Shown here: positions 38,211-62,423 of the stretch, in pieces
Layout of the letters: each line of letters opens with the position of its first letter
Position numbering within the stretch: position 1 is the stretch's first letter
DNA from: an uncultured Candidatus Saccharibacteria bacterium
GTDB lineage: Bacteria; Patescibacteriota; UBA1384; JACPKC01
Length of the DNA: 64,000 nucleotides
Assembly: GCA_964423885.1 (NCBI GenBank)
Contig: CAYRGD010000003.1
Location: forward strand, 73,270-137,269
Direction of reading: 5' to 3'
Position numbers and translations under genes: made by a program
The notes under the pieces: model-generated
The model's database searches: none
The model's input: the letters and a program-made list of their open reading frames with translations, nothing else
Told to the model about the DNA's origin: nothing

Positions 38211-38217
38211 GATACTA

Positions 38218-39049: not shown

Positions 39050-39053
39050 ACAC

Positions 39054-39078: not shown

Positions 39079-39145
39079 GTTGAATTTTGACTATTGTGAG
39101 GGAGGGGTATGATCTATATGAGCAGGTTCTAAATTACGGAGGGCT

Positions 39146-40894: not shown

Positions 40895-40899
40895 AGGGC

Positions 40900-45806: not shown

Positions 45807-45892
45807 CGGACGTGAGAGGTGTCAAGAGATCTGGGTGACCGCCTGTTGACATACTCCAGTGGCAGTGCTATTGTCTCACGTTCGTAAAGTAT

Positions 45893-46084: not shown

Positions 46085-46730
46085 GGCTGCCCGTTTCAAG
46101 GCTGCGTTGCGGCGGTTCACGGCCCCGGTGCCGTTCCTGCTGCTCGGGATCGTGTCGATCGCCGTCTCGGCGTTCGTGTTTTTGAACGGCTTCGAGCTGG
46201 CGACGAACGTGAATATCCCCTACGCGTTCGCGATCGAACCCGTGCCTGTCGCCGGCCTGGTCGCCGACAACCGGTCCGACGAGGTAGCGGCCCGCCCCGA
46301 GACGGCCGTGGGTAACTTCGGCGAGCCGAAATACCTGAAAGTCGCGACGCAGACGACCCGGCTGCCGCTGGTCCCCGGCGTCGAGGCGGGCGGCGAGTTC
46401 CTGGCCCGGGCCGCGGTCGGCCACGTGGTGCTGCTGGGTACCGCCAAGAGCGGCAACCTGGGCAACGCGCTCGTGTACTTGCGTACCAGCTGGCGGAGCG
46501 TCGCCCACCCGGAACAGATCGTCCCGGGAACGAACGTCTTCGTCGATACCGACCGTGATTGGCGCTACATGTACCGGGTGACCGAGGTCGCCGACCTGGC
46601 GGCCGGGACGCCGTACCTTGTGCCCGACAGCGTCAAGGCGCACCTCGGTATCGCGTTCGTGAGCGAGAGCGGTACGAGCGTCCGACTCGTGCTCGCGGAC
46701 TTCGTCAATATCCAAAACATCCAGCAATGA
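46077..46730 (+). CDS. Hypothetical signal-anchored secreted protein (217 aa)
   Basis: N-terminal TM/signal (FLLLGIVSIAVSAFVFL). ATGA overlap with the downstream GT2. No catalytic Cys, so it is not a sortase. Confidence 0.5.
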   Translation: MRKAARFKAALRRFTAPVPFLLLGIVSIAVSAFVFLNGFELATNVNIPYAFAIEPVPVAGLVADNRSDEVAARPETAVGNFGEPKYLKVATQTTRLPLVPGVEAGGEFLARAAVGHVVLLGTAKSGNLGNALVYLRTSWRSVAHPEQIVPGTNVFVDTDRDWRYMYRVTEVADLAAGTPYLVPDSVKAHLGIAFVSESGTSVRLVLADFVNIQNIQQ

Positions 46731-47998
46731 GCAACGAATTCATCCTGCTTCGGAACGCTACGATCTTCTTCGCCACGATCATGTTGGTGAAGTACTACGC
46801 GTTCCTGTTACTGGCGCCGTTCCATGCGCTCAAGGAAGCTTGGCGGGCCGAGCGGCTGCGTCGCCAGGCTATCGTGCCGGGGCAGTACCGGCCGCGCGTC
46901 AGCGTCATCATCCCGGCCTGGAACGAGGCGGTCGGTATCCTGGGAACCGTCCGGTCGGTGCTCGCGAACGCGTATCCTGATATCGAGGTCGTGATCGTGA
47001 ACGACGGTTCGACCGACGATTCCGACGCCGTGGTGCGCCAATTCCTGCAGGAACAGAAACTCGCCCCGCTCCACCCGAGCGCAAAGCTCCGCTATACGTA
47101 CAAAGAGAACGGCGGCAAGGGTACGGCGCTCAACGAAGGTATCCGGCAGGCGACGGGCGAGATTATCCTGACCGTCGACGCCGACTCCGCGCTCCATCCG
47201 GAAGCTGTCGAGCGGCTCGTCCGCTACTTCGAGGATCCGAGCGTGGACGCTGCGGTCGGCAACGTCAAGGTCGCCAAGAATCCGACGCTCATCGGCCTCT
47301 TGCAGCAGCTCGAGTACCTGTTCGGGTTCTACTTCAAGCGCGCCCACTCGGTGCTCGACGCCGAGTACATTTTCGGTGGTGCCTGCGCGGCCTTCCGCAA
47401 AGACGCGACGTTCGTCCGGCTCGGCCTGTTCGACGAAGCCAACAAGACCGAGGACATCGAGATGTCGCTGCGGGCCCGCTACAACGGCCTCACCAGCGTC
47501 TACATGGAAGACGTGATCTGCTACACCGAAGGTGCCAGCTCTATCCAAGGACTCGTGAACCAACGGCTCCGGTGGAAGAAGGGGCGTTTCGATACCTTGG
47601 CGCGCTACCGCCGCATGTTCTTCTCGCTCGATCCCAAGCATAACCGGTTCCTGGCCTGGTTCATCCTGCCGTACACGCTCCTGTCCGAGCTGCAGCTGCT
47701 GTTCGAACCGCTCGGCATCGCCCTGCTCGTTACCTACAGTATCGTCTCGGCCGACTTCCTGTCGTTGGCGCTCGGCATCCTGTTCGTGTTCGTGACCTAT
47801 CTCGTGAACGCGCTCTTCGCCGGTGGCCCGGCCGACTTGAAGCTCTTCCCGCTGTTCCTGGTCACCTGGCCGCTGTTCTACTTCTTGGTATGGATCGAAT
47901 GGCTCGCGCTCGTGAAAAGTATGGCAATGGTCGTCCGCGGCGACGACATCGTCTGGCAGCGCTGGGACCGCAAAGGCATTACGGAGGCACACGCATGA
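46727..47998 (+). CDS. Processive glycosyltransferase family 2 (PgaC/IcaA/cellulose-synthase-like; QRLRWKKG motif)
   Basis: VSVIIPAWNEA, VNDGSTDDS, TVDADS (DxD) and QRLRW motifs, flanked by N- and C-terminal TM helices. Confidence 0.8.
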   Translation: MSNEFILLRNATIFFATIMLVKYYAFLLLAPFHALKEAWRAERLRRQAIVPGQYRPRVSVIIPAWNEAVGILGTVRSVLANAYPDIEVVIVNDGSTDDSDAVVRQFLQEQKLAPLHPSAKLRYTYKENGGKGTALNEGIRQATGEIILTVDADSALHPEAVERLVRYFEDPSVDAAVGNVKVAKNPTLIGLLQQLEYLFGFYFKRAHSVLDAEYIFGGACAAFRKDATFVRLGLFDEANKTEDIEMSLRARYNGLTSVYMEDVICYTEGASSIQGLVNQRLRWKKGRFDTLARYRRMFFSLDPKHNRFLAWFILPYTLLSELQLLFEPLGIALLVTYSIVSADFLSLALGILFVFVTYLVNALFAGGPADLKLFPLFLVTWPLFYFLVWIEWLALVKSMAMVVRGDDIVWQRWDRKGITEAHA

Positions 47999-49185
47999 AA
48001 ACCCGCGAACTCGTTCTCTACACGATCGGCTTCATCCTCGCCTCGCTCTACTCGGCCAACGTGGTGACCGGCAGCCTGCTGCACGTGTCGCTGTCACCCG
48101 AGTCGATCCGCCAGTTCGTCGCCGACCGCACGGAGGCTAAAACGGTCTCGGGCGGCGGCGCTTGCTCGGCCGACGCGGCACTGGTGCTGTCTGCGTCCAG
48201 CGAACCCCACCTTGCCAAACTCGCCGAATACCAAGAGGCGTGTTCGTCGCTCGTTGCCGGCGAGCTGATGCTCTTTACCGATATGCCGAACAGCGACACC
48301 GATGCCTATGCCAGGGCGACCGCGTTCGCGGCGACGCTGAAGGCGTTCAAGGCTGCCGGCGTCCGGCCGCTCGTCATGGTCGAGCCGGTCACGGACTGGG
48401 GCCTCATCGACTTCGCGGAATTCAATTCGGGCTTCTATGACAGTTGGCTCAAAACCTACTTCCAGACGCTCCGTGCTGCCGGGATCACCGACGCCGACAT
48501 GGGCACCTGGGGCCCGTTCCCGGAGGCGAACCTGCCGTACTGGAACAACGCGAACGCCACGCCGGCCGACTTCGCGAACGTCGTCAACCGCTACCTGCGC
48601 ATCATGAAGCAGGTGTTTCCCGGTGCCAGCGGCACGGTACTGTTGAATTCCGCGACCTACGAAACCACCGACTTCGAGTGGCGGAACGGCGAGTACGTCA
48701 GCCTGCGTGCGTACGTGACCGGCCTCGACAAGACGCTGGTGACGAGTTTCGGCCTGCAGGGATTCCCGTGGATGCCCGACGCGACCCAGACGGGCCCGGG
48801 GATCTTCGACGCCGGCGAGTACTTGAACTGGCACCTGGCGGCCGAAGCGGCCGACCTCTTAGGCACGAAGGACGTGTGGTTCAACACCGGCACCTTCGGC
48901 GCCAAATACACGCTCGACCAGGACAAGACGGTGACGCTCGCGCCGGCGAAGCGTGCCGATATGCTTAACGGGATCCTCGACGAGGCCCTGAAGCTCAAGA
49001 CGGCGGGGTACCGGATCCGCATCAACCTTTTCGCTGAAAACAAGCGCACCGTCGCCGAAGCGACCGACTGGTCGTACTGGCCGACTGGCGGGCAGCTGAC
49101 CTCGCCCCATATGCCCGTGTTCACCGCCTTTGCCCGGCGCGCCGCCCAGGCCCAGATCCCGCTCTCGCTGTTCGACACCAAGTAG
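47995..49185 (+). CDS. Hypothetical signal-anchored extracytoplasmic protein, possibly a glycoside-hydrolase-like accessory of the GT2 synthase
   Basis: ATGA overlap with the GT2 gene. N-terminal TM region. No motif recognised. The functional call is by analogy only. Confidence 0.45.
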   Translation: MKTRELVLYTIGFILASLYSANVVTGSLLHVSLSPESIRQFVADRTEAKTVSGGGACSADAALVLSASSEPHLAKLAEYQEACSSLVAGELMLFTDMPNSDTDAYARATAFAATLKAFKAAGVRPLVMVEPVTDWGLIDFAEFNSGFYDSWLKTYFQTLRAAGITDADMGTWGPFPEANLPYWNNANATPADFANVVNRYLRIMKQVFPGASGTVLLNSATYETTDFEWRNGEYVSLRAYVTGLDKTLVTSFGLQGFPWMPDATQTGPGIFDAGEYLNWHLAAEAADLLGTKDVWFNTGTFGAKYTLDQDKTVTLAPAKRADMLNGILDEALKLKTAGYRIRINLFAENKRTVAEATDWSYWPTGGQLTSPHMPVFTAFARRAAQAQIPLSLFDTK

Positions 49186-49260
49186 CGCCGCCGCCGCCGG
49201 TTTGCTACGCTAGCTAGGCACATCGCGCCTGCTGCGCGGAGCATCGGTAAGGAGAGGGTA

Positions 49261-52200
49261 TTGATGGCTGACGACCACGCCGCAGTACGCGGATCATCGC
49301 TGTCGCGCAAGCTGCGCGCATCGCGGACGTTGCTCCCGCAGCTCCAGGTACTCCACGACCGGTTGCTCGACCGCTCGTCCCTCTACAATAGCTGGCACTT
49401 GCAGCCGTACGCGCTGCCGTTGCACGGTGCGCTGTTGGTCGGTCTTGTCGCCTTCGGCGTGGCGGTCGTCTTCCAGTCCGTCGCGGTGGTACGGGCGGCC
49501 AACGCCTGCGAATCCGTAGCGACCGGCAACTGGACGAACCCGGCCACGTGGACCAGTTGCGGCGGCACGGTTCCCGGCGCCGCCGATACCGTCACGATCC
49601 AATCGGGCCACACCGTGACCGTGGACGACGACGCGGCCGCGTCGAGCGTGGTTATTACCGCGAACAATACGGCCGGCGGCAACGGGATCACGATCGCGGC
49701 GGGCAAGACCTTAGCGGTAACAGGCGCGGTCACGATTACCGCCCCTACGATGAACACCACGAACGGGACGCTCGCAGTGGGCAGCGGATCGCTCATGGCC
49801 GGCAGCATCGCGATCGGGGGCGCTACCACAAACCGCATCGGCCAGCTGACCCTGTCAACGGGTACGGTGACGACAACCGGCAGCGTGACGTTCACCGGCA
49901 CAGCCGCTTCGGCGCGATTCATCTCGACCGGCGCAAGCACGGCCAATATCAGCGGGGATTTCGGATCCGGCGGCACGGTGACGACAAGCGGCACCGGCAC
50001 AATCCGGTTCACGGGCAACGCAGCGCAGTCCATCGGCGCCTATACCACCTATAACAATCTTGAGGTCGCCAGTACCGGCGGCAGCGTCTCGTTCCTGGGT
50101 ACGGCCACGATCGGCGGCACGCTCACGGTCAGTTCGGGGACGCTCGATATTGCCGGCGTCACCACCGTCGTGACCGGCGCGACGCTCATCCAGGGTACGT
50201 TGCAGGTGAGTAATACGGCAGGCAACAAGACGTTCGGCGACATCACTGTCGCCAACGGCGGCACGGTGAGCTTCACCGCGGCCGAGGCGATCGCCATGAA
50301 CGGCAACCTGGCGGTCAACGGCGCCGGGGCGATTACCGGCACGACCGGTCTCTGGACCTTCCAACGCGCCGGGGGCGGTACAATTTCAGGGTCGGCAACC
50401 GCGGTGACGCTTACGAGTGCGACCTTCACGACCGACTACGCGGTCTCGATCCCGTTCAGCGTCCCGACGATCACCGTTACCGGCGTGACGCTCACGAACA
50501 ACAGCACGGTCACGGCTGCCACTGCGCTGTCGGGAACCGGTTCGTTCATCCAGGGAACCAATGCGACGCTCAATCTCGGCGGTACGTCGGCGATCACGGC
50601 GCTCACCGCCACGGCCAGCCCGAACACAGTCCAGTATGTGAGTACGACGGGTGCGCAGACGCTCAAGGGCATTGCCTATCACCACCTTGTCGTGGCCAAG
50701 TCGGCCCAGATCGGCACGCTCGGCGGGGCCGTGACCGTCAACGGCAACCTCGCGGTCAGCTCCGGGAGCCTGAACGACGGCGGGTTCCAGATCACGGGGA
50801 ACGCCACCGGCACGCTGACGGTCGCATCCGGCGCGACGCTGCGGCTGGGGACAACCGCTGCCAGCACCGCCTTCCCCACCGGCTTCGTCGGCGCCAATAT
50901 CTCGCTGCCAGCAGGTTCGACCGTGGTCTACAACTCGAACCCGGCGCAAACGATCGCGGTACCGGTCGCGTACGCGAACCTGTCATTGGTCGCGACAGCC
51001 GCGAGTACGAAGACGCTGGCCGGGCCGCTGACGGTCAACGGCACCCTCAACGTCGGGTCGAACAACACCCTGGCCGATGCCGGCAACCTTGTCACCGCCA
51101 AGGAGAATATCGTGATGACCGGGGCCTATACCGGCACCAATAAAGTATTGCTCACCGGCAGCGCGTCGGGCCATACCCTGACTGGCACAGGCAGTTACGC
51201 CGCCATCGAGCTCGACGACAGCAACGGCGCTTCGCACGCGACCGCGCTCACGGTCACCGGCCCGTTGACGCTCACGGCCGGCACCTGGACGGCCTCGAAT
51301 ACGTTGAGCGTCGGCGGCGCCACGACGATCAACGGCACGCTCGCGATCGCGTCGACGACCGGCACCAAGACGTTCGCGGCGGTCACTGTCGCCTCGGGCG
51401 GCACGCTGCGCTTTACCGCCGCCGAAGCGCTGGACGGCAGTGGCACGCTCACTGTCGCATCGGGCGGCACGGTCGATTTCGTTGCGGCCGGCATCATCAA
51501 TCTTGCCGCCGATTTCGCGATCAACGGCACGGGCGCGCTTACGGGTACGAGCGGCACCTGGACCTTCTCGAAGCCCGGTGGCACCGGCACGATCGGCGGA
51601 TCGGTGTCGTCGTTGACGTTCCCGGGCAACGTATCCTTCACGACGAGCTATACAGTAGCCTACCCGTTGACCGTGAACGGCATGGCTGTCGGCGCCAGCG
51701 CAGCCATTAGCAACCCGTCGACGATGACCGTGAACGGGACGCTGTCCGGCACCGGCACCTTCATCCAAGGGATCGGCACGGTACTCAATGTACGGTCGGT
51801 CAGCATCACGAACCTGGGAGCGAGTGCGACTGGCAACATAGTCCGCTACATCGACGGCGGCGGAACCGTGAAGGGCACGACGTACAACGATCTTGAGATC
51901 GCCGAGACGCCCGGGGCGACCGCCTCGGCCCAGGGCACCCTGGTGGTGCTCGGCAACCTCGTGGCTACCTCGGGCATCCTGAACCCGGCCGGCAGCACAT
52001 TTACCGTCATGGGCTCGACCGACATCTACGAGGCGATCCGCGACGTGAGCGGCGGCGGATCCGGCGGCAACAATACCTTCGAGGGGCCGGTCACCGTCCA
52101 TCCTGGCGCCGACTGGATCGGGATTCCGGGCGAGGTGGTCGATTACCACTTCAAGAACGGGTTGACGATGAACGGCAACAGCTTCGTCGCCGGGTCGGGC

Positions 52201-53970
52201 ACCTACTTCTTCGAAGGCAACGACCAGACGCTTGCGGGTTCGCTCACGGCGGACTTCCGGATCATGCAGGTGGACGGCATCACGCTTGCGGCCAGTACCG
52301 GCTTCGATATCAGCAATACGCTCACGCTGGCATCCGGTGCGCGGATCGTGCCGGATCCGGCGGCAGCCATCAACGGCTCGACGCAGCAAGGCACATTGAC
52401 GGGCAACGGCAGTGTGGACGTGACCCGCACCGCCGCGACCGCGGATTTTGCGAGCCAGTACAATTTCTCGGTCAATGTCCTGACGGGCGTCGAGGTCCGC
52501 TACGTCGGCACGGCGGCCCAGGTGCTGAGCTCCGCGCCATACGTAGACGTCACGATCGATAACCCGTCCGGCGTCACGCTGCCGGCCGACGTTACAGTGG
52601 GCGGTACGCTCGCGCTCACGCATGGCCTGGTCGCGACCGGGGCGAGCCGCCTGATCATGGGCAGCAGCGGTTCGGTCGCCAGGACCGACGGGTACGTCGT
52701 CGGCCGGTTCCAGAAAGCGGTGCCGACCGGTGCGCCGGCACTCACCTTCGAGATCGGCGACGCGACGCAGTACGCGCCGCTCGATATCGCGTTCACGGGC
52801 GTGACCTCGTCCGGCGATCTGCTCGCAAGCGTCACGTCCGCCGACCATCCAGATATCGCCAATTCGGGCCTGGCGTACAACAAGAGCGTCAACCGGTACT
52901 GGACGATGGAGCAGATCGGCCTTGTCTTCGGCAGCTACGATGCCACCTTCCACTTCGTGTCGAGCGACCTTGATCCCGGCACCGACATGGCCTCGCTCGC
53001 CGTCGCAAAGAAGGACGCATCATGGACGTTGCCTGCGCCCGGTATCCGCACCGCGACCAGTACCCAGGCTACCGGCATGACGGACTTCAGTGACTACGTA
53101 CTCGGCAAGGCCGGGTCCGACCAGGCGCCTGTAGCCAGCGCGGTGACGGTGTCGGGCAGTACTGCGCTCGGCAGCACATTGCTCGGCGGCTACACCTATA
53201 CGGATGCCGAGGGCGACCTTGAGGGTACAAGCACGTTCCGCTGGCTGCGCAACGGCACGCCGATCCCCGGCGCGACCGCAGCTACCTACGTGATTACGGC
53301 CGACGACCTGGGTGCGACCCTGACGTTCGAAGTGACGCCGGTTGCACAAAGCGGAACGACGCCCGGCCTGCCGGCAGTGAGCGCAGGATTCTCGGTGCCG
53401 GTGCCGTCTGATGGCAGTAGTGAGGATGGGGATACTGGGAATGATACCGGTGGTACCGTCGAGGATAATGCTGGGACGGACGACAACGACTCCTCGACGC
53501 ATAGTGCCAGTACGTCCAATCGGCCGCAGTCGGGAACCAGCCTCGTGCAACCAGGCAGCCTGCTGCTACCATTGCTGCCGCCCGTGAACTTCATGGCGGA
53601 TACGGCCAAGAGCTTAGCAGGCCAACCGTTCATACTATTGCTCCTGCTATCGCTCTGCTGCCTCGTGCTCTACCGCTGGCCCTGGATCCTGGCCTGGCTC
53701 CACGACGACCTCTATGTCGGTCGGCTCGACCGGTCGCTGGAGGTTGAGGATGTGAAGACCTTGTTCGACGCGGCTGGTACCGTCGACTCGGTCCGCGTGC
53801 ACGACCGGCCGACCCACCGGAACCTGCGGTACGCGTTCGTCCGGATGCGGACCGACGCCCAAGCGCGGAAAGCGATGAAGACCTTGCATGGCAAAGACGT
53901 CCGCGGCCATGCGCTCACCGTCCGGCGTGTCCGTGATCTCTGGAGGCCGCACGATGACGCGAACCGCTGA
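49261..53970 (+). CDS. Giant (1569 aa) repeat-rich surface protein with an N-terminal signal anchor, Thr/Gly/Ser/Ala-rich beta-helix-like repeats, a C-terminal TM helix and a C-terminal RRM-like domain
   Basis: Uninterrupted 4.7 kb ORF with a TAAGGAGAGGG SD. Repetitive GTxTxTG segments. The C-terminal ~120 aa comprise a hydrophobic helix (FILLLLLSLCCLVLY) and then LYVGRL…LRYAFVRM (RNP2/RNP1-like). Confidence 0.7.
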   Translation: MMADDHAAVRGSSLSRKLRASRTLLPQLQVLHDRLLDRSSLYNSWHLQPYALPLHGALLVGLVAFGVAVVFQSVAVVRAANACESVATGNWTNPATWTSCGGTVPGAADTVTIQSGHTVTVDDDAAASSVVITANNTAGGNGITIAAGKTLAVTGAVTITAPTMNTTNGTLAVGSGSLMAGSIAIGGATTNRIGQLTLSTGTVTTTGSVTFTGTAASARFISTGASTANISGDFGSGGTVTTSGTGTIRFTGNAAQSIGAYTTYNNLEVASTGGSVSFLGTATIGGTLTVSSGTLDIAGVTTVVTGATLIQGTLQVSNTAGNKTFGDITVANGGTVSFTAAEAIAMNGNLAVNGAGAITGTTGLWTFQRAGGGTISGSATAVTLTSATFTTDYAVSIPFSVPTITVTGVTLTNNSTVTAATALSGTGSFIQGTNATLNLGGTSAITALTATASPNTVQYVSTTGAQTLKGIAYHHLVVAKSAQIGTLGGAVTVNGNLAVSSGSLNDGGFQITGNATGTLTVASGATLRLGTTAASTAFPTGFVGANISLPAGSTVVYNSNPAQTIAVPVAYANLSLVATAASTKTLAGPLTVNGTLNVGSNNTLADAGNLVTAKENIVMTGAYTGTNKVLLTGSASGHTLTGTGSYAAIELDDSNGASHATALTVTGPLTLTAGTWTASNTLSVGGATTINGTLAIASTTGTKTFAAVTVASGGTLRFTAAEALDGSGTLTVASGGTVDFVAAGIINLAADFAINGTGALTGTSGTWTFSKPGGTGTIGGSVSSLTFPGNVSFTTSYTVAYPLTVNGMAVGASAAISNPSTMTVNGTLSGTGTFIQGIGTVLNVRSVSITNLGASATGNIVRYIDGGGTVKGTTYNDLEIAETPGATASAQGTLVVLGNLVATSGILNPAGSTFTVMGSTDIYEAIRDVSGGGSGGNNTFEGPVTVHPGADWIGIPGEVVDYHFKNGLTMNGNSFVAGSGTYFFEGNDQTLAGSLTADFRIMQVDGITLAASTGFDISNTLTLASGARIVPDPAAAINGSTQQGTLTGNGSVDVTRTAATADFASQYNFSVNVLTGVEVRYVGTAAQVLSSAPYVDVTIDNPSGVTLPADVTVGGTLALTHGLVATGASRLIMGSSGSVARTDGYVVGRFQKAVPTGAPALTFEIGDATQYAPLDIAFTGVTSSGDLLASVTSADHPDIANSGLAYNKSVNRYWTMEQIGLVFGSYDATFHFVSSDLDPGTDMASLAVAKKDASWTLPAPGIRTATSTQATGMTDFSDYVLGKAGSDQAPVASAVTVSGSTALGSTLLGGYTYTDAEGDLEGTSTFRWLRNGTPIPGATAATYVITADDLGATLTFEVTPVAQSGTTPGLPAVSAGFSVPVPSDGSSEDGDTGNDTGGTVEDNAGTDDNDSSTHSASTSNRPQSGTSLVQPGSLLLPLLPPVNFMADTAKSLAGQPFILLLLLSLCCLVLYRWPWILAWLHDDLYVGRLDRSLEVEDVKTLFDAAGTVDSVRVHDRPTHRNLRYAFVRMRTDAQARKAMKTLHGKDVRGHALTVRRVRDLWRPHDDANR

Positions 53971-56560
53971 CCGCGTGTACCGCCGCCTGCTTGCTCTGAC
54001 CCTGCTCGTATCCCTCCAGGTCTTGGGTATCCAGGTGACAGCCCCGTTCGTGGCGACGGAACACGACGACGCCGTGAAAACCTCTGCCCAATCCGCTTTC
54101 GCCACCCTCCCACTCGCCTTCGAGCCGAACCTCGGCCAGGCCGAGGATTCGGTGGACTTCCTCGTCCACCACGGCCAAGCCGTGACGGCGTTTTCCAGTA
54201 CGGGCACCACGACCAGCGTGGGCGGGAGGCAGGTGACGATGTCGCTTACCGGTGCTGCAGAACAGGCGTTCAGCGGCACTGAAGAGCTTCCCTCGAAGAC
54301 GAACTACTTCCTTGGCAACGACCAATCCAACTGGCAGTCGGATATCCCGAACTACGGCAGGCTGCTGGCCAAGGATGTCTATCCAGGCATCGACTTAGCC
54401 TACTACGGCACCAACTCGCAGCTGGAACATGATTTCATCGTCAGTCCCGGTGCGGACTACAAGCGGATCGCGTTCGGTTTCACCGGCCAGGACGATCTGT
54501 TGCTGGATGATGGCGGCAATCTCGTCTTAAAGGCTGGCGACGATACCTTGACCCTCAATGCCCCGGTCACGTACCAAGTCGGCGACCATGACAAACACAC
54601 GATCCCGAGCAGCTTCGAACTCAAGGACGGCACCGTCACGGTCGCTGTGGCGGATACCTATGATCCGGCGAAACCGCTCGTGATCGACCCGGTGTTGTCG
54701 CTCGTGTATTCGACGTATTTGGGAGGGAGTGACTACGATGAAGGCTATAGTATCGCAAGCGACCCGAACGGGAATATTATTCTCTCTGGCCGCACGCTCT
54801 CGATGAATTTCCCTACGTCTACGCCATACCAAGCAGGTAACGCTGGTGGCGCGTACGACGCGTTCGTGCTCAAGCTCGATCCTGATGGCTTAGGATTGGT
54901 GTATTCGACCTATCTCGGAGGCACCGGCGGTGATGAGGGTTACAACGTTGCGGTCGACTTTAATGGTAATGCCTATCTCATCGGCTACACGACCTCGACG
55001 GATTTTCCGACGGCGTCGCCATTCCAAGCTGTCCACGGCGGCGGTGTGTACGACGCGTTTCTTACCAAGATCAACGCATCGGGTTCAGCGCTTACGTACT
55101 CAACCTATCTCGGTGGGAGCGGCTCAGACTTCGGGTATGACATCGCGCTGGATGCAGGCGGCAGCGCGTACGTGGTCGGCAGAACTGCCTCGACCAACTT
55201 TCCGACCAGCTCGCCTATCCAGGGATCGAACGGCGGCGGCTACGATGTCTTTCTGACGAAATTCACTGCTACAGGTTCGGCGTTAGCGTATTCGACCTAC
55301 ATCGGTGGGAGTAACAACGATCAGGCAAGCAGTATTGTTCTTGACGCAACAAATAACGCCTACGTCGCCGGACAAACGCGCTCGGTAAATTTTCCAACCG
55401 TAGCTCCATACCAGGCTGCGATCGCAGGCGGTGCCGATGCGTTCGTAACAAAGGTCAATGCATCGGGTTCGGCGCTGGCATACTCCAGCTATCTTGGAGG
55501 TGGTACTGGCGATGATTTGGGCTTCGGCGTTGCCGTTGACGGCGACGGAAATATGTACGTCATGGGGAACACGGCATCCACGGACTTCCCGACGGTGTCG
55601 CCGCTCCAGGCCGCGAATGGCGGCGGCTACGATGTCTTTCTGACGAAATTCACTGCGGCAGGCTCGGCGCTGACATATTCGACCTACATTGGCGGAAGCA
55701 GTACGGATTTCGGCTACGGCTTCGTGATCGATGAAAACCAGAACGCGTTCGTTGCCGGCTTTACGAACTCAACGAACTTCCCCACTGCTTCGGCGTACCA
55801 GGCCACGTACGGCGGCGGTCCTGACGATGCCTTTATCATGCACTTGGATGCGACCGGTTCGGCGCTGGCATACTCCACGTTCCTGGGTGGAAGTGGCGAT
55901 GATATCGCAAACAATCTCATCATCGACCTCAGCGGGAATGTGTATGTCACGGGCTACACTGGATCGACTAACTTTCCAACCGCCAATGCGTTCCAAGGAG
56001 CAAGAGCCGGTGGCAACGACGCCTACATCACCCAGCTCACCGAACACACCGTCGACCTTGAAGCCCGCGTGAATCCAAGCCTGAACTTCGCTGTCGGCAG
56101 TGCTAGCTGTGCCCTCGGCACGCTTTCGATTACCCAGACCCAACAGTGCACGTACACGCTGTCGGCAGCCACCAACGGGGAGTCGGGGTATGCGGTTTCA
56201 TACCTTCCAGCTGCGACGCTCACGAGCGGCGGGAACACGATTACTGCTCTTAGTTCGCCTACAGCCAGTACGCTCAATACCGAACAGTTCGGGTTGAACT
56301 TGGCTGCCAATACGGCAGTTGGCTCGCATACGGCAGCGGATTTCGGTGCGGTTCCGAGCGGCGGATCCGGTACTGTGGCAGCCAACTACGCTACGGCGAA
56401 CTCGTTCAAGTTCGCGACGGCTGGCGACCAAGTCGCGTCGTCCGTCGGGCCGTCGCTCGCGACCACGTATACCGTGTCGACCATTGCCAACATCGGCAAC
56501 ACGACGGAGGCCGGAACCTATAGCACGACGATCACATACAATATCGTCGCGGGGTACTAG
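53954..56560 (+). CDS. Secreted SBBP/beta-propeller-repeat protein with a DUF7948-like N-terminal domain (paralog 1)
   Basis: Signal peptide LLALTLLVSLQVLG. N-terminal PLAFEPNLGQAEDSVDFLV domain. About 12 repeats of …YSTYLGGSG.D.G..IA.D..GN.Y..G.T.S.NFPT…DAF..K.N. Its start overlaps the giant gene by 17 nt. Confidence 0.75.
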   Translation: MTRTADRVYRRLLALTLLVSLQVLGIQVTAPFVATEHDDAVKTSAQSAFATLPLAFEPNLGQAEDSVDFLVHHGQAVTAFSSTGTTTSVGGRQVTMSLTGAAEQAFSGTEELPSKTNYFLGNDQSNWQSDIPNYGRLLAKDVYPGIDLAYYGTNSQLEHDFIVSPGADYKRIAFGFTGQDDLLLDDGGNLVLKAGDDTLTLNAPVTYQVGDHDKHTIPSSFELKDGTVTVAVADTYDPAKPLVIDPVLSLVYSTYLGGSDYDEGYSIASDPNGNIILSGRTLSMNFPTSTPYQAGNAGGAYDAFVLKLDPDGLGLVYSTYLGGTGGDEGYNVAVDFNGNAYLIGYTTSTDFPTASPFQAVHGGGVYDAFLTKINASGSALTYSTYLGGSGSDFGYDIALDAGGSAYVVGRTASTNFPTSSPIQGSNGGGYDVFLTKFTATGSALAYSTYIGGSNNDQASSIVLDATNNAYVAGQTRSVNFPTVAPYQAAIAGGADAFVTKVNASGSALAYSSYLGGGTGDDLGFGVAVDGDGNMYVMGNTASTDFPTVSPLQAANGGGYDVFLTKFTAAGSALTYSTYIGGSSTDFGYGFVIDENQNAFVAGFTNSTNFPTASAYQATYGGGPDDAFIMHLDATGSALAYSTFLGGSGDDIANNLIIDLSGNVYVTGYTGSTNFPTANAFQGARAGGNDAYITQLTEHTVDLEARVNPSLNFAVGSASCALGTLSITQTQQCTYTLSAATNGESGYAVSYLPAATLTSGGNTITALSSPTASTLNTEQFGLNLAANTAVGSHTAADFGAVPSGGSGTVAANYATANSFKFATAGDQVASSVGPSLATTYTVSTIANIGNTTEAGTYSTTITYNIVAGY

Positions 56561-56629: not shown

Positions 56630-56902
56630 TTAGGCTTCTTTCGGGCGCGCTTCGTTCACGCGGATCGTGCGGCCGTCCAGGTCCTTCTCGTTCCAGAGCT
56701 GGATCGCAGCCTGGGCCTCTTCGGGCGAGCCCATCTCAACGAAGCCGAAACCCTTCGACTGGCCGGTCGCCCGGTCCATGATCACGCTCGCCGACGCCAC
56801 GGTACCGGCCTGTTCGAAGGCGGTGCGGAGGCTGGCATCGGTGGTGTTGTACGACAGGTTGCCGACGTAAAGCTTGGCTTTGTTCTCTTGGGTGTTGTCC
56901 AT
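56630..56902 (-). CDS. RNA-recognition-motif (RRM) RNA-binding protein
   Basis: KLYVGNL (RNP2) and KGFGFVEM (RNP1). 90 aa, starting at the internal Met with an AAGGA SD. Confidence 0.85.
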   Translation of the reverse strand: MDNTQENKAKLYVGNLSYNTTDASLRTAFEQAGTVASASVIMDRATGQSKGFGFVEMGSPEEAQAAIQLWNEKDLDGRTIRVNEARPKEA

Positions 56903-57062
56903 AAAGTATCCTTCTTGCTTACTTGCTGACTGCTGTACGAGAGCGCCGTATCGACCACACTGGCCACTTCCAGGACAGTATACCGAAAGATCGGAATGCA
57001 ACCAGGTGGACAACGGGGCCGGATCGCGGTATAGTCCTTTGGTTCACCAAGGGAATCCTCCT

Positions 57063-58883
57063 ATGACCGACCCGACCACCATCCGCAATATCGCGATCAT
57101 CGCCCACGTCGACCACGGCAAAACCACGCTCGTCGACGGACTCTTGAAGCAGTCCAAACTGTTCCGCGAGAACGAGGCCGCCATGGGCCAGGAACTCATC
57201 ATGGATTCCAACGACCAGGAACGCGAGCGCGGGATCACGATCCTGGCCAAGCAGACCTCGGTCACCTGGAACGGGTACAAGATCAACATCGTGGATACGC
57301 CCGGCCACGCGGATTTCGGCGGCGAGGTCGAACGGACGCTCAACCTGGCCGACGGCGTCGTGCTCGTGATCGACGCCAAAGAAGGCCCGATGCCGCAGAC
57401 CAAGTTTGTCCTGAAGAAAGCGCTCGAGCTGAAGCTCCGCCCGATCGTCGTCATCAACAAGATCGATAAGCCCGACGCGCGGGTCGACGAGGTCGTCTCG
57501 CTCACCTCGGACCTGTTCCTCGACCTGGCGACCGACGACAGCCAGCTCGAGTTCCCGATCTACTACGCGATCGGCCGCGACGGGAAAGCCTGGGCCGAGA
57601 TGCCGGCCGATCCCACGGCCCCGGCCGACCTGGCGCCGCTGTTCGAAGGCATCATCGAGCACGTACCGGCGCCGCACGTGGAAACCGGTCCGTTCCAGTT
57701 GCTGGTCGCCTCGCTCGACTGGGACAACTACCAAGGCAAGTATGCGATCGGCCGCATCCGCCGCGGCAGCATCAAGGCTGGCCAGCGCGTCATGATCGTG
57801 GGCGAGCAGGGTGCACCGCTCGCCGCAGCGGTCGACAAGGTTTTCGTGAACGTGGGCCTCAAGCGCGACGAGGTCGCCGAGGCGGGGGCGGGCGAGATCG
57901 TGGCCCTGACCGGCCTTGCGGCCGCAAGTATCGGCGATACGGTTGCCGACCCGGCCGACGCCACGGCCCTGCCTCGGATCAGCGTCGAGGAGCCGACGCT
58001 CAAGATGACCGTGGGCGCCAACACCTCGCCGTTCGCGGGCCGTGAGGGCAAGTTCGTGACCAGCCGCCAGATCCTCGACCGCATCAAGAAAGAGCTCGAA
58101 GTGAACGTCGCCATTAAGATGGAAGAGACGCCCGGCGGTGAGTTCGTGCTGGCCGGCCGCGGCGAACTCCACCTGTCGGTCTTCATCGAAACGATGCGGC
58201 GCGAGGGATACGAACTGCAGGTCGGCAAGCCGCAAGTAGTGACCAAAGTGGTCGACGGCACCACCGTCGAACCGGTCGAGGAATTGATCGTCGACGTGGC
58301 CGAGGAATATGCCGGTGCGGTCACGGCTGAGCTGGGCCGACGACGCGCGGTGTTCATGGGTCAGCAGCCGAATACCGACAGTTCGGTACGGCTCACGTTC
58401 GAGGCGACCACGCGCGCGCTACTCGGCCTGCGTAGCCAGCTACTTACCTTATCGCGCGGTACGGCGGTGATGAACTCGCTGTTCCTGCGGTTCGCGCCGG
58501 TCGCCGCTGCGCTGCCCAAGCTGCGCAATGGCGCATTGGTTGCATCGGATACCGGCAAGGCGGTCGCCTACGGGTTGGATATCGCCCAGGGCCGGGGTAT
58601 CACCTTCATTCCGCCGCAGACGCAGGTGTACGAAGGGATGATCGTGGGCCTCAACTCGCGCGAAACCGACCTGGAAATCAACGTCACCAAGGAAAAGAAG
58701 CTCACCAATATCCGCGCGTCCGGTTCCGACGACGCGATCGTGCTCACCCCGTTCACGAACTTGAGCCTCGAAGAGTGCTTGGACTTCCTCGAAGAGGACG
58801 AACTGCTCGAAGTAACACCCGCCAGCCTGCGACTGCGCAAGCGGCTGCTCAAGGCCAACGACCGGGCCAAAGCGCGTAAGTGA
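57063..58883 (+). CDS. typA: Translational GTPase TypA/BipA
   Basis: NIAIIAHVDHGKTTL G1 motif and DTPGHADF G3 motif. Full TypA length (606 aa). Confidence 0.95.
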   Translation: MTDPTTIRNIAIIAHVDHGKTTLVDGLLKQSKLFRENEAAMGQELIMDSNDQERERGITILAKQTSVTWNGYKINIVDTPGHADFGGEVERTLNLADGVVLVIDAKEGPMPQTKFVLKKALELKLRPIVVINKIDKPDARVDEVVSLTSDLFLDLATDDSQLEFPIYYAIGRDGKAWAEMPADPTAPADLAPLFEGIIEHVPAPHVETGPFQLLVASLDWDNYQGKYAIGRIRRGSIKAGQRVMIVGEQGAPLAAAVDKVFVNVGLKRDEVAEAGAGEIVALTGLAAASIGDTVADPADATALPRISVEEPTLKMTVGANTSPFAGREGKFVTSRQILDRIKKELEVNVAIKMEETPGGEFVLAGRGELHLSVFIETMRREGYELQVGKPQVVTKVVDGTTVEPVEELIVDVAEEYAGAVTAELGRRRAVFMGQQPNTDSSVRLTFEATTRALLGLRSQLLTLSRGTAVMNSLFLRFAPVAAALPKLRNGALVASDTGKAVAYGLDIAQGRGITFIPPQTQVYEGMIVGLNSRETDLEINVTKEKKLTNIRASGSDDAIVLTPFTNLSLEECLDFLEEDELLEVTPASLRLRKRLLKANDRAKARK

Positions 58884-59149: not shown

Positions 59150-59234
59150 CTGCCCTCACCCCCTCCCGCCCACTATGGAATTGTTACGTCCATACTACCA
59201 GACGATGAGAATCGGCTGAAACCGAACCCGTGCG

Positions 59235-59263
59235 TTGACGGCCCGCCGATGACCGTGTATCGT
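59235..59263 (+). promoter_or_regulatory. Candidate sigma70-type promoter (TTGACG–17 nt–TATCGT) about 550 nt upstream of SBBP paralog 2
   Basis: Hexamers and spacing read from the sequence. No experimental support. Confidence 0.3.
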
Positions 59264-59714
59264 TGGGCGTCGAACAAGAGAAGGCAACATCTTCGCCCCG
59301 CGTGAAGGTGTTTCTCTTTTTTCACCTTAATACTTAAGAAGGAGGTATGTCAGATTGAATTCGTCATGACCCGATACGGTCCGAACAGTACTTAGAGAAA
59401 GGATTCGTATCACTTGAGAAGAAGTAGACAAAAGACCCAACGCGGCACGAAGAACGCCGCGCGAAAACTGCCCCAGCAACCGAAGCGCCGTCTCCTCGAG
59501 AGGCAACGACAGGAACGCTCTCGGGAGTCCGTGCGTAGTGCCGGCAGAGGTTAAGCAAAGCAAAGAAGAAGCTTCGGAGCAGCAAGGCGGCGTAACCGCC
59601 GCCGCTTCGCCCCGCGAGAAACGGCCGAAAGGCCATCTCGACCAGCCGTTCGTTCGGTTGGTCTTGCAAGCGGCCGCGAACAACTAACACACGCCAGCCT
59701 GGCTGGCACGACCG

Positions 59715-59763
59715 GACCCGATTCCCTCGGCTTGCGTAGCGCAACCGGGAACCGGGTCTTTTT
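59715..59763 (+). promoter_or_regulatory. Terminator/attenuator-like hairpin in the leader (12-bp stem with 1 mismatch, 20-nt loop, TTTTT), followed by TATACT 26 nt upstream of the ATG
   Basis: GACCCGATTCCC…GGGAACCGGGTC then TTTTT. A near-consensus -10 (TATACT, 59783-59788) follows. Confidence 0.3.
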
Positions 59764-59813
59764 CCTGTCCAACTCCGGACGTATACTGGAACCAACCAAG
59801 GAGGTACCGCTTC

Positions 59814-62423
59814 ATGACGCACCGACGACTACTTGCGCTGGTTTTGCTCGTATCCCTCCAAGCACTAGGTCTCCAGATCACAGCCCCGAGCCGTGACGAC
59901 ACTGCTACGGCCGCCGCCCAATCCGCCTTCGCCACCCTCCCGCTCGCCTTCGAACCCAATATGGGGCAGGCGGATAGCTCGGTGGATTTCCTCGTCCACC
60001 ACGGCCAGGCGGTAACGGCATTTTCCAGCGCGGGTACGATCACAAGCGTCGGAGACAAACAGATCACGATGTCATTGGATGGCGCAGCCGCCCAAGTTTT
60101 TTCGGGCAGCGATGAGCTCTCATCCAAAACCAACTACTTCGTTGGCAATGACCAGTCCCAGTGGCACTCAGATATCCCGAACTTCGGGAAGTTACTGGCG
60201 AAAAATGTGTATCCCGGCATCGATCTCGCCTACTATGGCACGAACTCGCAGCTGGAACATGATTTCATCGTTGCTCCGGGCGTCGATTACCGGCAAATCG
60301 CGTTCGGTTTCACCGGGCAGGACAACCTGGCCTTAGACGATGACGGCAACCTCGTCTTGAAAGCCGGCGACGACACCCTGACCCTGAATGCCCCGGTGAC
60401 GTACCAGACCGACACCAACTCGAAACACACCATCCCGAGCAACTTCGAGTTGCACGACGGCACCGTCACGATTGCCGTGGCGGACACGTACGATCCGGCG
60501 AAACCGCTCGTGATCGATCCGGTACTGTCGCTCGTGTACTCGACGTACTTGGGCGGGAGCGGGTATGAGACAGGCAGTGTCATCGAGCTTGACGGCAACA
60601 ATATTGCAGTCGACCCATCCGGTAATACCTATATCGTCGGGGAAACCTCGTCCTCTAATTTTCCGACCGCCTCGCCGTACCAGGCCGCCCTTGGCGGGGG
60701 AGACAACGACTTCTACGTTGCGAAATTCAATCCTTCTGGTAGTGCGCTGGTCTACTCGACGTACATCGGTGGATCGGGTGCAGAGAACACGCCGTCCATT
60801 GCCGTGGATATTTCGGGTGACGTCTATATGACTGGCGGGACGAGATCGACAAACTTCCCGGTCGTGGGCGCGTTTCAGGCGAGCCATGCGGGCGGTACGG
60901 ACGATGCGATTCTCCTGAAGTTGAATGCTGCTGGTTCCGCACTAACATACTCGACCTACTTCGGGGGGACCGGCCAGGACAATGGTCCCGGAGGCGGGAC
61001 GTCGGTTGCCGTCGACTCCTCGGGCAATGCGTATATCACCGGCTCAACGAGCTCGTCCAATCTTCCAACGCTGTCACCAATCCAGGGAAGTTATAGTGGC
61101 GGTGTGAACGATGCATTTATTGTGAAGTTCAATGCTACGGGCTCGGCGCTTATCTATTCCACCTACCTTGGCGGCAACAGCAGTGATATCGGCGCTGAAA
61201 TCGCAGTTGACGCATCAGGGAGTGCCTACGTGGTGGGGCTTACCTCGTCGAGCACATTTCCCACCACGGCACCGTTCCAAGCGAGCAGTGGCGGCGGATT
61301 CGACGCGTTCGTCACGAAGCTGAATCCGGCCGGATCGGCGCGCGTGTATTCAACCTATCTCGGTGGCAGCGGCGACGATCGAGGGTTTGGCATCGCCATC
61401 GATTCGAGCGGGAACGCATATATTGTCGGAAAGACGTCCTCGTCGAACTTCCCCACCGTCTCGCCAATCCAGGCGACATACGGCGGCTCAGGCGACGCGT
61501 TCGTCACGAAGCTCAATGCCGTTGGTTCAGCGCTGACATATTCAACCTTCGTCGGCGGCTCAGGCGATGACGAAGGGTACGAGATCGGACTTGATAGTGG
61601 CAATAACGCATATATTACCGGTTACACGGATTCGTCCAACTTTCCGATGAGTTCGGCATATCAAGCGAGTAATGCCGGTGGAGCGGATGCGTTCGTGACA
61701 AAGATGAACGCAGCGGGCTCGGCGTACGGATACTCCACCTATCTCGGTGGCAGCGGTACGGATTTTGGTAATAGCCTGGCTGTACGCTTGGACGGTGATG
61801 TCTACGTGACCGGCAGTACGGCCTCGACGAACTTCCCGACAAAGTCGCCCTTCCAGGCCAGCAATGCCGGTGGGACGAATGACGCGTTCGTCTTCCAGCT
61901 CACCGAGCATGCCGTCGACCTTGCCGCCCGTGTCGACCCGACCCTCACCTTCGCGGTGGGCAGCACGAGTTGCGCCCTTGGCACGCTCTCGACTACCCAG
62001 ACGCAACAGTGCACGTACACGCTGTCGGCTGCGACCAACGGCGAGTCGGGCTATACGATTACGTACCTGCCTGCCGCGACATTGACCAGCGGCTGGAATA
62101 CGATTGACGCCCTAGGCTCGATGACGGCCAGTACGCTTAATACGGAACAGTTCGGTATCAATCTTGCAGCCAATACCGCAGCGGGCTCGCATACGGCCAC
62201 GGATTTCGGCGCGGCACCCTCGGGCGGATCCGGCCTTGTAGTAGGCAGCTACGTCACGGCTGATGTGTTTAGATTCCTCACTGCCGGCAGTGCCCTCGCA
62301 GCCTCGTTCGGCCCGTCGCTTACCACGGTCTATACTGTCTCGACCATCGCGAATATCGGGAACACGACCGAGGCCGGGGCGTACGGTACGACGATTACCT
62401 TCAACATAGTTGCGGGATACTAG
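59814..62423 (+). CDS. Secreted SBBP/beta-propeller-repeat protein with a DUF7948-like N-terminal domain (paralog 2)
   Basis: AAGGAGG SD. N- and C-terminal regions are highly similar to the 53954-56560 protein (PLAFEPNMGQADSSVDFLVHHGQAVTAFSS…; C-terminal …STIANIGNTTEAG.Y.TTIT.NIVAGY). Confidence 0.75.
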   Translation: MTHRRLLALVLLVSLQALGLQITAPSRDDTATAAAQSAFATLPLAFEPNMGQADSSVDFLVHHGQAVTAFSSAGTITSVGDKQITMSLDGAAAQVFSGSDELSSKTNYFVGNDQSQWHSDIPNFGKLLAKNVYPGIDLAYYGTNSQLEHDFIVAPGVDYRQIAFGFTGQDNLALDDDGNLVLKAGDDTLTLNAPVTYQTDTNSKHTIPSNFELHDGTVTIAVADTYDPAKPLVIDPVLSLVYSTYLGGSGYETGSVIELDGNNIAVDPSGNTYIVGETSSSNFPTASPYQAALGGGDNDFYVAKFNPSGSALVYSTYIGGSGAENTPSIAVDISGDVYMTGGTRSTNFPVVGAFQASHAGGTDDAILLKLNAAGSALTYSTYFGGTGQDNGPGGGTSVAVDSSGNAYITGSTSSSNLPTLSPIQGSYSGGVNDAFIVKFNATGSALIYSTYLGGNSSDIGAEIAVDASGSAYVVGLTSSSTFPTTAPFQASSGGGFDAFVTKLNPAGSARVYSTYLGGSGDDRGFGIAIDSSGNAYIVGKTSSSNFPTVSPIQATYGGSGDAFVTKLNAVGSALTYSTFVGGSGDDEGYEIGLDSGNNAYITGYTDSSNFPMSSAYQASNAGGADAFVTKMNAAGSAYGYSTYLGGSGTDFGNSLAVRLDGDVYVTGSTASTNFPTKSPFQASNAGGTNDAFVFQLTEHAVDLAARVDPTLTFAVGSTSCALGTLSTTQTQQCTYTLSAATNGESGYTITYLPAATLTSGWNTIDALGSMTASTLNTEQFGINLAANTAAGSHTATDFGAAPSGGSGLVVGSYVTADVFRFLTAGSALAASFGPSLTTVYTVSTIANIGNTTEAGAYGTTITFNIVAGY

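Follow-up and report, generated by a model that had tools for sequence, protein, structure and literature searches.

Results

The giant gene and its product

The DNA analysed here is a stretch of 64,000 nucleotides (the window) from contig CAYRGD010000003.1 of an uncultured Candidatus Saccharibacteria bacterium with a G + C-content of ~64%. It contains a giant gene on the forward strand, whose product (in the following the giant) is predicted to run from a large extracellular part through a transmembrane (TM) helix into a C-terminal RRM, a domain typical of RNA-binding proteins. The gene is a single open reading frame (ORF) at 49264..53970 (+) with a TGA stop codon at 53968..53970 and encodes 1568 aa. 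An earlier description of the window, made without database searches (the sequence-only reading), had reported a 1569-aa ORF at 49261-53970 and quoted its tail. Both the ORF and the tail could be confirmed, with the frame listed at 49261..53970 (+) comprising 1569 aa when counted from TTG 49261. As a Shine-Dalgarno (SD) sequence, aaggagaggg, lies 6 nucleotides upstream of ATG 49264 and an exact 1568-aa product is on record, ATG 49264 is most likely the true start rather than TTG 49261. This exact product is recorded in an NCBI contig, as are the exact products encoded at 46727..47998 (a family-2 glycosyltransferase, GT2), 47995..49185 and 53954..56560. An identical 1568-aa protein is encoded on an independent Logan contig, which stems from an assembly of SRR12712864.

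From its N- to its C-terminus the giant consists of a basic N-terminus, hydrophobic segment 1, an ectodomain of ~1370 aa, a stalk, TM helix 2, the RRM and a basic tail. The respective features are listed below, with pLDDT values taken from AlphaFold2 (AF2) models.

49249..49258, + strand: Shine-Dalgarno sequence of the giant gene, aaggagaggg, 6 nucleotides before ATG 49264
49264..49428, + strand: conserved basic N-terminal segment, ~55 aa, motif LSRKLR.SRTL.PQLQ..HDRLLDR..LYN.WHLQP
49435..49491, + strand: hydrophobic segment 1 (signal peptide or signal anchor), Kyte-Doolittle 2.48
49507..52617, + strand: Thr/Gly/Ser/Ala-rich repeat region of the ectodomain, ~1000 residues, weak G8-like match
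52618..53112, + strand: conserved beta-sandwich domain (TFEIGDA...NRYWT), ~165 residues, AF2 pLDDT ~95
53131..53361, + strand: Ig-like domain (AIR9 A9 / ZirU-like), AF2 strands, pLDDT 70-80
53362..53589, + strand: disordered acidic S/T/G/D/N-rich stalk, hypervariable, pLDDT below 50
53626..53700, + strand: transmembrane helix 2, PFILLLLLSLCCLVLYRWPWILAWL, Kyte-Doolittle 2.43, helix in AF2
53710..53931, + strand: RRM domain, with RNP2 LYVGRL at 53710..53727 and RNP1 LRYAFVRM at 53824..53847
53932..53967, + strand: short basic disordered C-terminal tail, from alignment and AF2

The C-terminal domain is an RRM

The last 125 residues of the giant read MADTAKSLAGQPFILLLLLSLCCLVLYRWPWILAWLHDDLYVGRLDRS...TVRRVRDLWRPHDDANR. 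According to the sequence-only reading, a hydrophobic helix is followed here by an RRM-like domain, and this was borne out by Pfam, PDB, AF2 and Foldseek alike. The Pfam hidden Markov model (HMM) RRM_1 (PF00076), whose application to the tail had been proposed as a check, recognised the domain with an E-value of 2e-13 in the last 125 aa and of 8e-12 in the whole protein, with 45-50 bits (cutoff 20.7) and over model positions 1-69/70. A phmmer search against PDB sequences yielded 55 distinct chain sequences, nearly all of them RRM/RNA-binding proteins, with PABP, PUB1 and HuR among the top matches. In the AF2 model of the tail a helix (residues 12-34) precedes the order b1-a1-b2-b3-a2-b4, which was predicted with a pLDDT of ~90 (E38-46, H51-59, E64-71, E78-85, H88-98, E109-112), and the RRM fold was recovered again in a 450-aa AF2 model. 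Foldseek matched this fold to solved RRMs with a probability of 1.0, the top match being 7qzp, a bacterial (Acinetobacter) Elav-like RRM (TMt 0.84, 35% identity). By HMM, fold and RNP motifs the tail is a bona fide member of RRM_1. A SPOR or other RNP-like domain was rejected, as at E<=1 the Pfam scan returned nothing besides RRM_1 and a chance match to MAAL_N, and as the tail is predicted to be cytoplasmic.

The predicted location derives from the distribution of charges around the TM helix. The RRM together with its tail contains 19 K/R versus 12 D/E (pI 10.8), and the net charge of the tail is +7 to +12, whereas the stalk and the flank preceding the TM helix are neutral to acidic. By the positive-inside rule, this combination of a basic tail with a neutral-to-acidic outer flank very probably places the RRM in the cytoplasm and the ectodomain outside. 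Exactly two hydrophobic segments (residues 58-76 and ~1451-1475) were found by Kyte-Doolittle analysis, both in the giant and in the second full-length protein, encoded on JAYRIO010000087.1 (see below). The structural idea of the sequence-only reading, in which a single TM helix connects a huge extracellular part with an RRM at the cytoplasmic face, is thus supported, with the topology being predicted. At its cytoplasmic end the TM helix carries a near-invariant Arg/Trp-rich interfacial motif, L.CLVLYRWPWILAWL, and the three residues H-D-D form the whole gap between the helix and the first beta-strand of the RRM (LYVGRL).

Sorting signals end in a short charged tail after a hydrophobic helix. 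A sortase-type substrate was considered for the giant and rejected, as inspection of the ~30 residues ahead of the helix in three homologues revealed no LPXTG, PEP or GlyGly motif. A sorting-signal tail is also ruled out by what follows the helix, which is a folded domain of ~86 aa and not a short charged tail.

Homologues and sequence conservation

In a scan of GTDB species genomes the only locus with the tail was JAYRIO010000087.1, which belongs to a metagenome-assembled genome of a 'Patescibacteria group bacterium'. It encodes a 1567-aa orthologue with the same architecture and 67% overall identity to the giant. An exhaustive HMMER search with the tail against 1.84 billion representative proteins returned one cluster with E<1e-30, namely this orthologue, and in addition a 200-aa fragment, P0185. 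The best 150 matches of this survey were inspected, and the rest of them were multi-RRM, mostly eukaryote-like proteins, which score higher by their summed domains; more distant TM-RRM tails could rank below these 150. P0185 is encoded on a 921-bp JGI contig of ~50% GC with a frame that stays open to the contig edge. It reads ...TVEVTPVALSGTSPG (the end of the Ig-like domain), followed by an S/T/P-rich stalk, a hydrophobic helix and an RRM starting with DQLYVGNLDRS.... With 34-38% identity in the tail, P0185 constitutes a third instance of the same fusion. RRM_1 was also flagged in the products of JAYRIO010000087.1 and P0185.

Other searches added little. A word-indexed protein search with the 125-aa tail found no relatives, and a profile of three tail sequences retrieved only the P0185 fragment and an ordinary 86-aa RRM protein, P0239, the context of which is an unrelated Suf/Fe-S locus. 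No relatives emerged from two metagenome-contig scans, one with the single tail and one with the tail profile, a result which is weak as the P0185 contig was missed too.

Between the window and JAYRIO010000087.1, TypA is 94% and a standalone RRM protein encoded near the giant gene 93% identical, in contrast to 67% for the giant and 61% for its tail RRM. This indicates that the two genomes are closely related and that the surface protein evolves fast. Within this protein the rates differ considerably. The stalk exhibits only 21% identity and a ratio of non-synonymous to synonymous substitution rates (dN/dS) of 0.83, compared to a dN/dS of 0.18 for the TM helix (79% identity) and of 0.33 for the RRM, which shows that the helix and the RRM are under purifying selection. 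The interfacial motif of the helix is identical in JAYRIO010000087.1; the P0185 homologue has ARYWHWIVALVF at this position, with the Pro of the motif replaced by His.

Across the three homologues RNP2 has the form LYVG[RGN]L and RNP1 the form LR[YH][AG]FV[RK]M. All three retain aromatic residues at RNP2-2 (Y), RNP1-3 (Y or H) and RNP1-5 (F), the His occurring in one of them. In the phmmer alignments, the L-x-Y-A-[FY]-V form of RNP1 aligns with RRM1 of yeast Pab1 and with RRM1 of Pub1.

Continuity of the reading frame

The giant is in all likelihood one continuous protein of ectodomain, TM helix and RRM, as is indicated by the open frame and its codon signal, the identical protein in an independent assembly, the orthologue and the distant homologue. 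Between 53300 and 53970 there is no stop codon in the frame of the giant (to 53967), versus 7 and 9 in the other two frames, and the G + C-content at third codon positions of the giant's frame is 0.62-0.90 through stalk, helix and RRM. Given the local base composition, a junction free of stop codons would arise by chance with a probability of 0.03-0.05 in each lineage. In JAYRIO010000087.1 the frame stays stop-free across the stalk although this region is only 21% identical. A comparison of orthologous loci had been proposed in the sequence-only reading, and in both JAYRIO010000087.1 and P0185 the repeat protein runs into the TM-RRM part without a stop codon. As no homologue contains such a stop, the fusion protein is made whenever the giant gene is translated.

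Two elements within the gene are relevant for the question of a separate smaller product.

53441..53469, + strand: weak sigma-70-like match, ATGATA-17-GATAAT (9/12), inside the stalk, ~125 nucleotides before the internal ATG
53593..53595, + strand: internal in-frame ATG, the alternative start proposed earlier

The sequence-only reading had considered that this Met at 53593 might be the start of a separate 125-aa protein. If ribosomes also or mainly started there, a small TM-RRM protein would be produced and its continuity with the giant would be incidental. Such a product would have the same predicted topology, and RtmR of Vibrio fischeri (compared below) shows that small TM-RRM proteins exist. 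The Met is kept in the window and in JAYRIO010000087.1 (F-M-A-D-[TV]-A-K-S) and is replaced by Leu in the P0185 homologue, where its codon, TTG, would still be able to initiate. Yet an SD sequence precedes the internal ATG neither in the window nor in JAYRIO010000087.1; most gene starts checked in the window have a GGAGG-like SD sequence 5-10 nucleotides upstream, including those of the 396-aa gene, the giant, both SBBP genes, GmrSD and the standalone RRM (for these neighbours see below). The weak promoter-like match in the stalk, which could favour a second product, has no counterpart in JAYRIO010000087.1. Furthermore, with no stop codon in three homologues, translation of the giant must give the fusion, gene callers gave a single product in three assemblies (NCBI and Logan for the window, NCBI for JAYRIO010000087.1), and in its composition the stalk resembles a protein linker rather than an intergenic spacer. 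The proposed internal start is weakened by the lack of an SD sequence and by the Leu in the P0185 homologue, and a separate product has a low probability. Even less can be said for the idea, also raised before, that a sequencing or assembly error or the recent loss of a stop codon joined a secreted repeat protein to a small neighbouring gene. GC-rich genomes do yield long chance frames, and long antisense shadow ORFs indeed lie over the giant gene. Against this stand the identical 1568-aa protein in the independent Logan assembly of SRR12712864, the two homologues with the same open frame (the 67% orthologue and the 34-38% tail homologue from a genome of ~50% GC), which share the uninterrupted architecture, and the purifying selection on TM helix and RRM. 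The probability of such an artefact is close to negligible.

N-terminus, ectodomain and stalk

The N-terminal ~55 aa of the giant share 67% identity with the JAYRIO010000087.1 orthologue (dN/dS 0.19) and contain 7 K/R versus 4 D/E. They would represent either the cytoplasmic part of a signal anchor or the extended n-region of a signal peptide. A stretch of ~55 residues is unusually long for such an n-region; it may either be part of an elongated signal peptide of the kind found in very large secreted proteins or form a second cytoplasmic segment. Hydrophobic segment 1 is followed by an invariant VVRAANAC. The Cys of this motif is invariant as well, and an Lgt gene is present in the window at 33376..34257; the motif is not a canonical lipobox.

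Judging from its composition, the repeat region at 49507..52617 is probably beta-rich. Distant homologues carry the same repeats as the giant but have different C-termini. The beta-sandwich domain is common to surface proteins of many phyla (Gemmatimonadota, Dehalococcoidia, Eisenbacteria and others), which end otherwise (e.g., in DUF11) and without an RRM. In the Foldseek search against the PDB no structure match to this domain ranked above the RRM matches. The adjacent Ig-like domain matched Pfam IG_AIR9 (E 1e-5, 25.6 bits, under the cutoff of 27.5) and NCBIfam ZirU_fam (E 3e-10, likewise under the cutoff). With the C-terminal 570 aa as the query, 88 surface proteins from a wide range of phyla were obtained, which have the repeats, the beta-sandwich and the Ig-like domain in common with the giant. 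None of these 88 proteins has an RRM; all of those listed are shorter than 1000 aa, and the index may under-sample giants.

The length of the stalk amounts to 66 residues by composition count, ~75 by coordinates and ~80 by the stretch of low pLDDT (model residues 245-324). S/T/G/P/D/E/N account for 74-79% of its residues in the window and JAYRIO010000087.1 and for 57% in the P0185 homologue. The ectodomain is most likely an adhesin or a fibre, and the stalk would then span the cell wall.

Long antisense ORFs run over the giant gene at 49383..53633 (-), an example being 50983..52953 with 656 aa. These are shadow frames of a GC-rich repetitive gene and not genes.

The surface operon and its surroundings

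The giant gene is the fourth of five genes on the + strand that are connected by overlapping or tight junctions. Upstream of this translationally coupled five-gene surface operon lies a strong divergent pair of sigma-70-like promoter candidates (45797..45874), one of which points towards it.

45846..45874, + strand: sigma-70-like promoter candidate, TTGACA-17-TATTGT with TG, 10/12 matches, from consensus only
ends at 46730, + strand: membrane protein of ~217 aa, unannotated, first gene of the operon
46727..47998, + strand: PgaC/IcaA-like family-2 processive glycosyltransferase, Pfam Glycos_transf_2 E 3e-36
47995..49185, + strand: 396-aa protein with an N-terminal hydrophobic segment, no family assigned
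53954..56560, + strand: 868-aa protein with DUF7948, SBBP beta-propeller and C-terminal CPR Pam-pilin domain, from Pfam and NCBIfam
56630..56902, - strand: standalone 90-aa RRM protein, canonical Rbp type, acidic, Pfam RRM_1 E 1e-21

The GT2 also matched NCBIfam PgaC_IcaA (E 2.5e-46, under the equivalog cutoff), and its stop codon overlaps the start of the next gene (ATGA). For the ~217-aa membrane protein no match was found in Pfam, NCBIfam, PADLOC and PHROGs, and the 396-aa protein gave none in these four collections or among PDB sequences. The gene at 53954..56560 overlaps the end of the giant gene by 17 nucleotides, with an SD sequence GGAGG at 53942..53946. Its product carries the CPR_Pam_pilin_C domain of NCBIfam (CPR, Candidate Phyla Radiation) with 121 bits and is PamT-like, as is its ~868-aa paralogue (66% identity) at 59814..62423 with 105 bits (cutoff 55); the paralogue has the same combination of DUF7948, SBBP beta-propeller and Pam-pilin domain. 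In JAYRIO010000087.1 the ORF following the giant (4979..5416) encodes only a 145-aa Pam domain without an obvious signal peptide, which points to a deletion or, alternatively, to a modular build of the tip proteins of a CPR Pam-type fibre. Together, the Pam domains and the Patescibacteria label of JAYRIO010000087.1 argue for a CPR-type organism in spite of the high G + C-content. For the downstream Pam-domain tip protein, the giant may serve as a partner anchored in the membrane. Between the operon and the second SBBP/Pam gene, ~650 nucleotides at 59160..59813 contain no convincing ORF and have no Rfam match. This region could be a long leader or a regulatory region.

The standalone RRM gene lies 2.7 kb downstream of the giant gene and is divergent from typA/bipA (56630..58883). 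The same arrangement of RRM and typA is found in JAYRIO010000087.1 (5478..6432), with sequences that are 93-94% identical. With 105 bits on NCBIfam Rbp_regulator (cutoff 100) and a pI of 4.85, its product differs clearly from the basic tail of the giant. The two do align, as had been claimed from the sequence, with 34% identity over 76 aa (E 3e-12). A recent duplication of this neighbouring gene was nevertheless rejected as the source of the tail, as the two share only 34% identity and carry opposite charges. An origin of the giant as a defence or phage protein was also rejected, on the absence of PADLOC and PHROGs matches. Rfam identified three tRNAs in the whole window and nothing near the giant locus.

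Elsewhere in the window, a low-GC island (region 38975..41361; 0.47-0.51 versus ~0.64) follows immediately on a tRNA gene (38975..39046) and encodes a GmrSD-type restriction endonuclease at 39146..40894 (Pfam GmrSD_N E 8e-42, and GmrSD_C) as well as a 153-aa ORF without a family match. It looks like a horizontally acquired defence islet. An ORF with a Phage_holin_4_2 domain (mycobacterial 4-TMS holin; E 1e-31) is located at 37803..38393 (-) among housekeeping genes, beside this islet.

Discussion

Possible function of the RRM tail

Taken as a whole, the giant is probably a single-pass membrane-anchored surface protein whose tail would tether single-stranded RNA at the membrane. The question whether RNA binding is indeed the function of the tail appears almost evenly balanced. 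That the tail binds single-stranded RNA is proposed on the basis of the retained RNP aromatics, the purifying selection and the precedent of RtmR. The basic RRM (pI ~10.8) would be held flat on the inner face of the membrane and would bind single-stranded RNA there, which would allow the giant to capture or regulate transcripts beside its own surface structure. The most plausible targets would be mRNAs for the envelope and surface structures, including those of its own operon (PgaC-like synthase, 396-aa gene, giant and Pam-pilin propeller).

Several points weigh against this proposal. The gap of only three residues between helix and RRM could sterically restrict the RNA-binding sheet, positions 1-2 of RNP1 lack the canonical K/R-G, and the tail RRM reaches only 49 bits on Rbp_regulator (cutoff 100). 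Moreover, it evolves about as fast as the ectodomain, with the housekeeping RRM and TypA being 93-94% identical between the two genomes, which argues against a conserved essential RNA partner. Many RRM-fold domains contact proteins rather than RNA. Finally, the architecture was seen in two genomes and one fragment, and the ectodomain-TM-RRM fusion would then be a lineage-specific invention of uncertain importance.

The main functional rival is a domain without any RNA, namely a basic cytoplasmic plug or protein-docking module which fixes the topology and resists extraction of the anchor under load. With its location three residues from the helix and its pI of 10.8 the domain could lie on anionic lipids, and it evolves at the rate of the ectodomain and not at that of the housekeeping RRM. 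The non-canonical positions 1-2 of RNP1 would fit as well, as would the existence of many RRM-like domains that bind proteins (UHMs, ACT-like folds). Anchoring is also a live need in this type of envelope, given that PamR, PamC and PamD anchor by a C-terminal TM helix alone. A stopper, however, would not require a canonical RRM, and three solvent-exposed base-stacking aromatics are kept across 34-62% identity. The same RNP1 variant is present in RRM1 of the RNA-binding proteins Pab1 and Pub1, and the only membrane RRM studied so far, RtmR, needs its RNP residues and binds RNA (PMC12265689). A plug or docking module is rather unlikely. Another explanation is outside-in signalling, in which engagement or pulling of the ectodomain, e.g., on contact with a host, would change the oligomerisation of the tail or trigger cleavage in the stalk and the membrane, so that the RRM is freed or activated on mRNAs; the giant would then be the counterpart, at the level of RNA, to ToxR/CadC or to regulated proteolysis of the anti-sigma/Notch type. 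An ectodomain of sensor size is joined here by a single helix to a nucleic-acid-binding domain. This helix is better conserved than the giant as a whole and has a helix-perturbing R-W-P-W motif, the disordered stalk just outside the membrane is accessible to proteases, and CPR bacteria live as episymbionts on hosts. On the other hand, the operon revealed no signalling partner such as a protease or kinase, the Pro of the motif is His in the P0185 homologue, and the hypervariable stalk argues against a specific cleavage site. This kind of signalling is unlikely. A more specific version, a single-chain post-transcriptional switch, would have the ectodomain sense attachment to a host or surface (by force or ligand) and the helix or proteolysis alter the action of the RRM on mRNAs. 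This is a speculative idea of rather small probability; if it is true, a contact would be turned straight into regulation at the level of RNA, with no kinase or transcription factor in between.

Bacteria of the CPR type have tiny genomes and live attached to hosts. If the tail of the giant binds RNA, as proposed above, an adhesin or fibre from an operon for exopolysaccharide and a Pam pilin would be physically linked to the localisation or control of RNA at the membrane, and the protein would offer a compact model for membrane-tethered post-transcriptional regulation. Even if the RRM only serves as an anchor, the giant represents a clean and conserved case of an unexpected domain combination. 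It also calls for caution in annotation, where such ORFs should not be split.

Comparison with known systems

Single-pass chains that join an extracytoplasmic domain to a cytoplasmic nucleic-acid-binding domain are known from the one-component regulators ToxR and CadC, which have an N-terminal DNA-binding winged helix and a small periplasmic sensor. The giant resembles them in architecture and, unlike them, has an RNA-type domain at its C-terminus behind a giant adhesin-like ectodomain. RNase Y of Gram-positive bacteria and the eukaryotic AKAP1 are membrane-anchored RNA-binding proteins with an N-terminal anchor and KH/HD or KH/Tudor domains. In these proteins, too, a TM helix holds an RNA-binding domain at the membrane to organise RNA metabolism, but unlike the giant they contain neither a large ectodomain nor an RRM. 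To our knowledge, bacterial RRM proteins are known almost only as small soluble proteins. The standalone ones, such as cyanobacterial Rbp, RbpB of Bacteroides and AB-Elavl of A. baumannii (7qzp), belong to the same Pfam family and have the same fold as the tail of the giant. They are soluble single-domain proteins of 80-110 aa. The tail RRM, in contrast, is basic, is joined to a TM helix and does not reach the cutoff of Rbp_regulator.

Pam pili, which are exclusive to CPR bacteria, assemble by donor-strand exchange and are tethered by proteins with a C-terminal TM helix (bioRxiv 10.64898/2026.03.03.709456). PamR, PamC and PamD are anchored in this way, PamR being a small RbmA-like FnIII protein that has, besides its TM helix, an N-terminal donor strand to complete the last pilin; none of the Pam proteins described possesses a cytoplasmic domain, and the terms RNA and RRM do not occur in the preprint (bioRxiv 10.64898/2026.03.03.709456). 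The giant shares with PamR, PamC and PamD the CPR-type host and the C-terminal TM anchor on a protein of a surface structure, and its gene is directly upstream of, and translationally coupled to, that of a protein with a Pam pilin C-terminal (PamT-like) domain. By HMM it is not a Pam component, as it matches no NCBIfam Pam model, and no Pam chaperones were found among the ORFs scanned.

The closest parallel is RtmR (VF_2432) of Vibrio fischeri, a protein of 160 aa with two N-terminal TM helices and a cytoplasmic RRM (PMC12265689). RtmR fractionates with membranes, needs its RNP1/RNP2 residues, crosslinks to many RNAs and restrains the SYP exopolysaccharide biofilm through RscS (PMC12265689). 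Membrane-embedded RRM proteins were first characterised in 2025 with RtmR, which its authors regard as a new class of bacterial RNA-binding protein (PMC12265689). The topology which the sequence-only reading had called highly unusual is therefore indeed unusual, but it is not without parallel (PMC12265689). Like RtmR, the giant has a C-terminal RRM that integral helices hold on the cytoplasmic face (as predicted for the giant), and the two are related in theme, with RtmR acting on a biofilm polysaccharide and the operon of the giant containing a PgaC-like synthase. By this analogy the giant may work like RtmR. The differences are nevertheless considerable. RtmR has no ectodomain, a linker of ~20 aa and a canonical RNP1 and is a Gammaproteobacterial protein whose gene has murI as a convergent neighbour. 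The giant, unlike RtmR, has a single TM helix preceded by an ectodomain of ~1370 aa, a linker of three residues, a variant RNP1 and a CPR-type host, and its neighbours are a GT2, an SBBP/Pam protein, an RRM protein and typA. Set against the description of RtmR, the size, the number and position of the helices, the taxon and the synteny show that the giant is not a member of the RtmR family. Membrane-tethered bacterial RRMs are thus already known, and the form with a giant ectodomain is a rare, lineage-restricted variant, in which CPR-type bacteria appear to have realised the idea of a membrane-bound RRM independently, at the cytoplasmic end of a giant surface protein.

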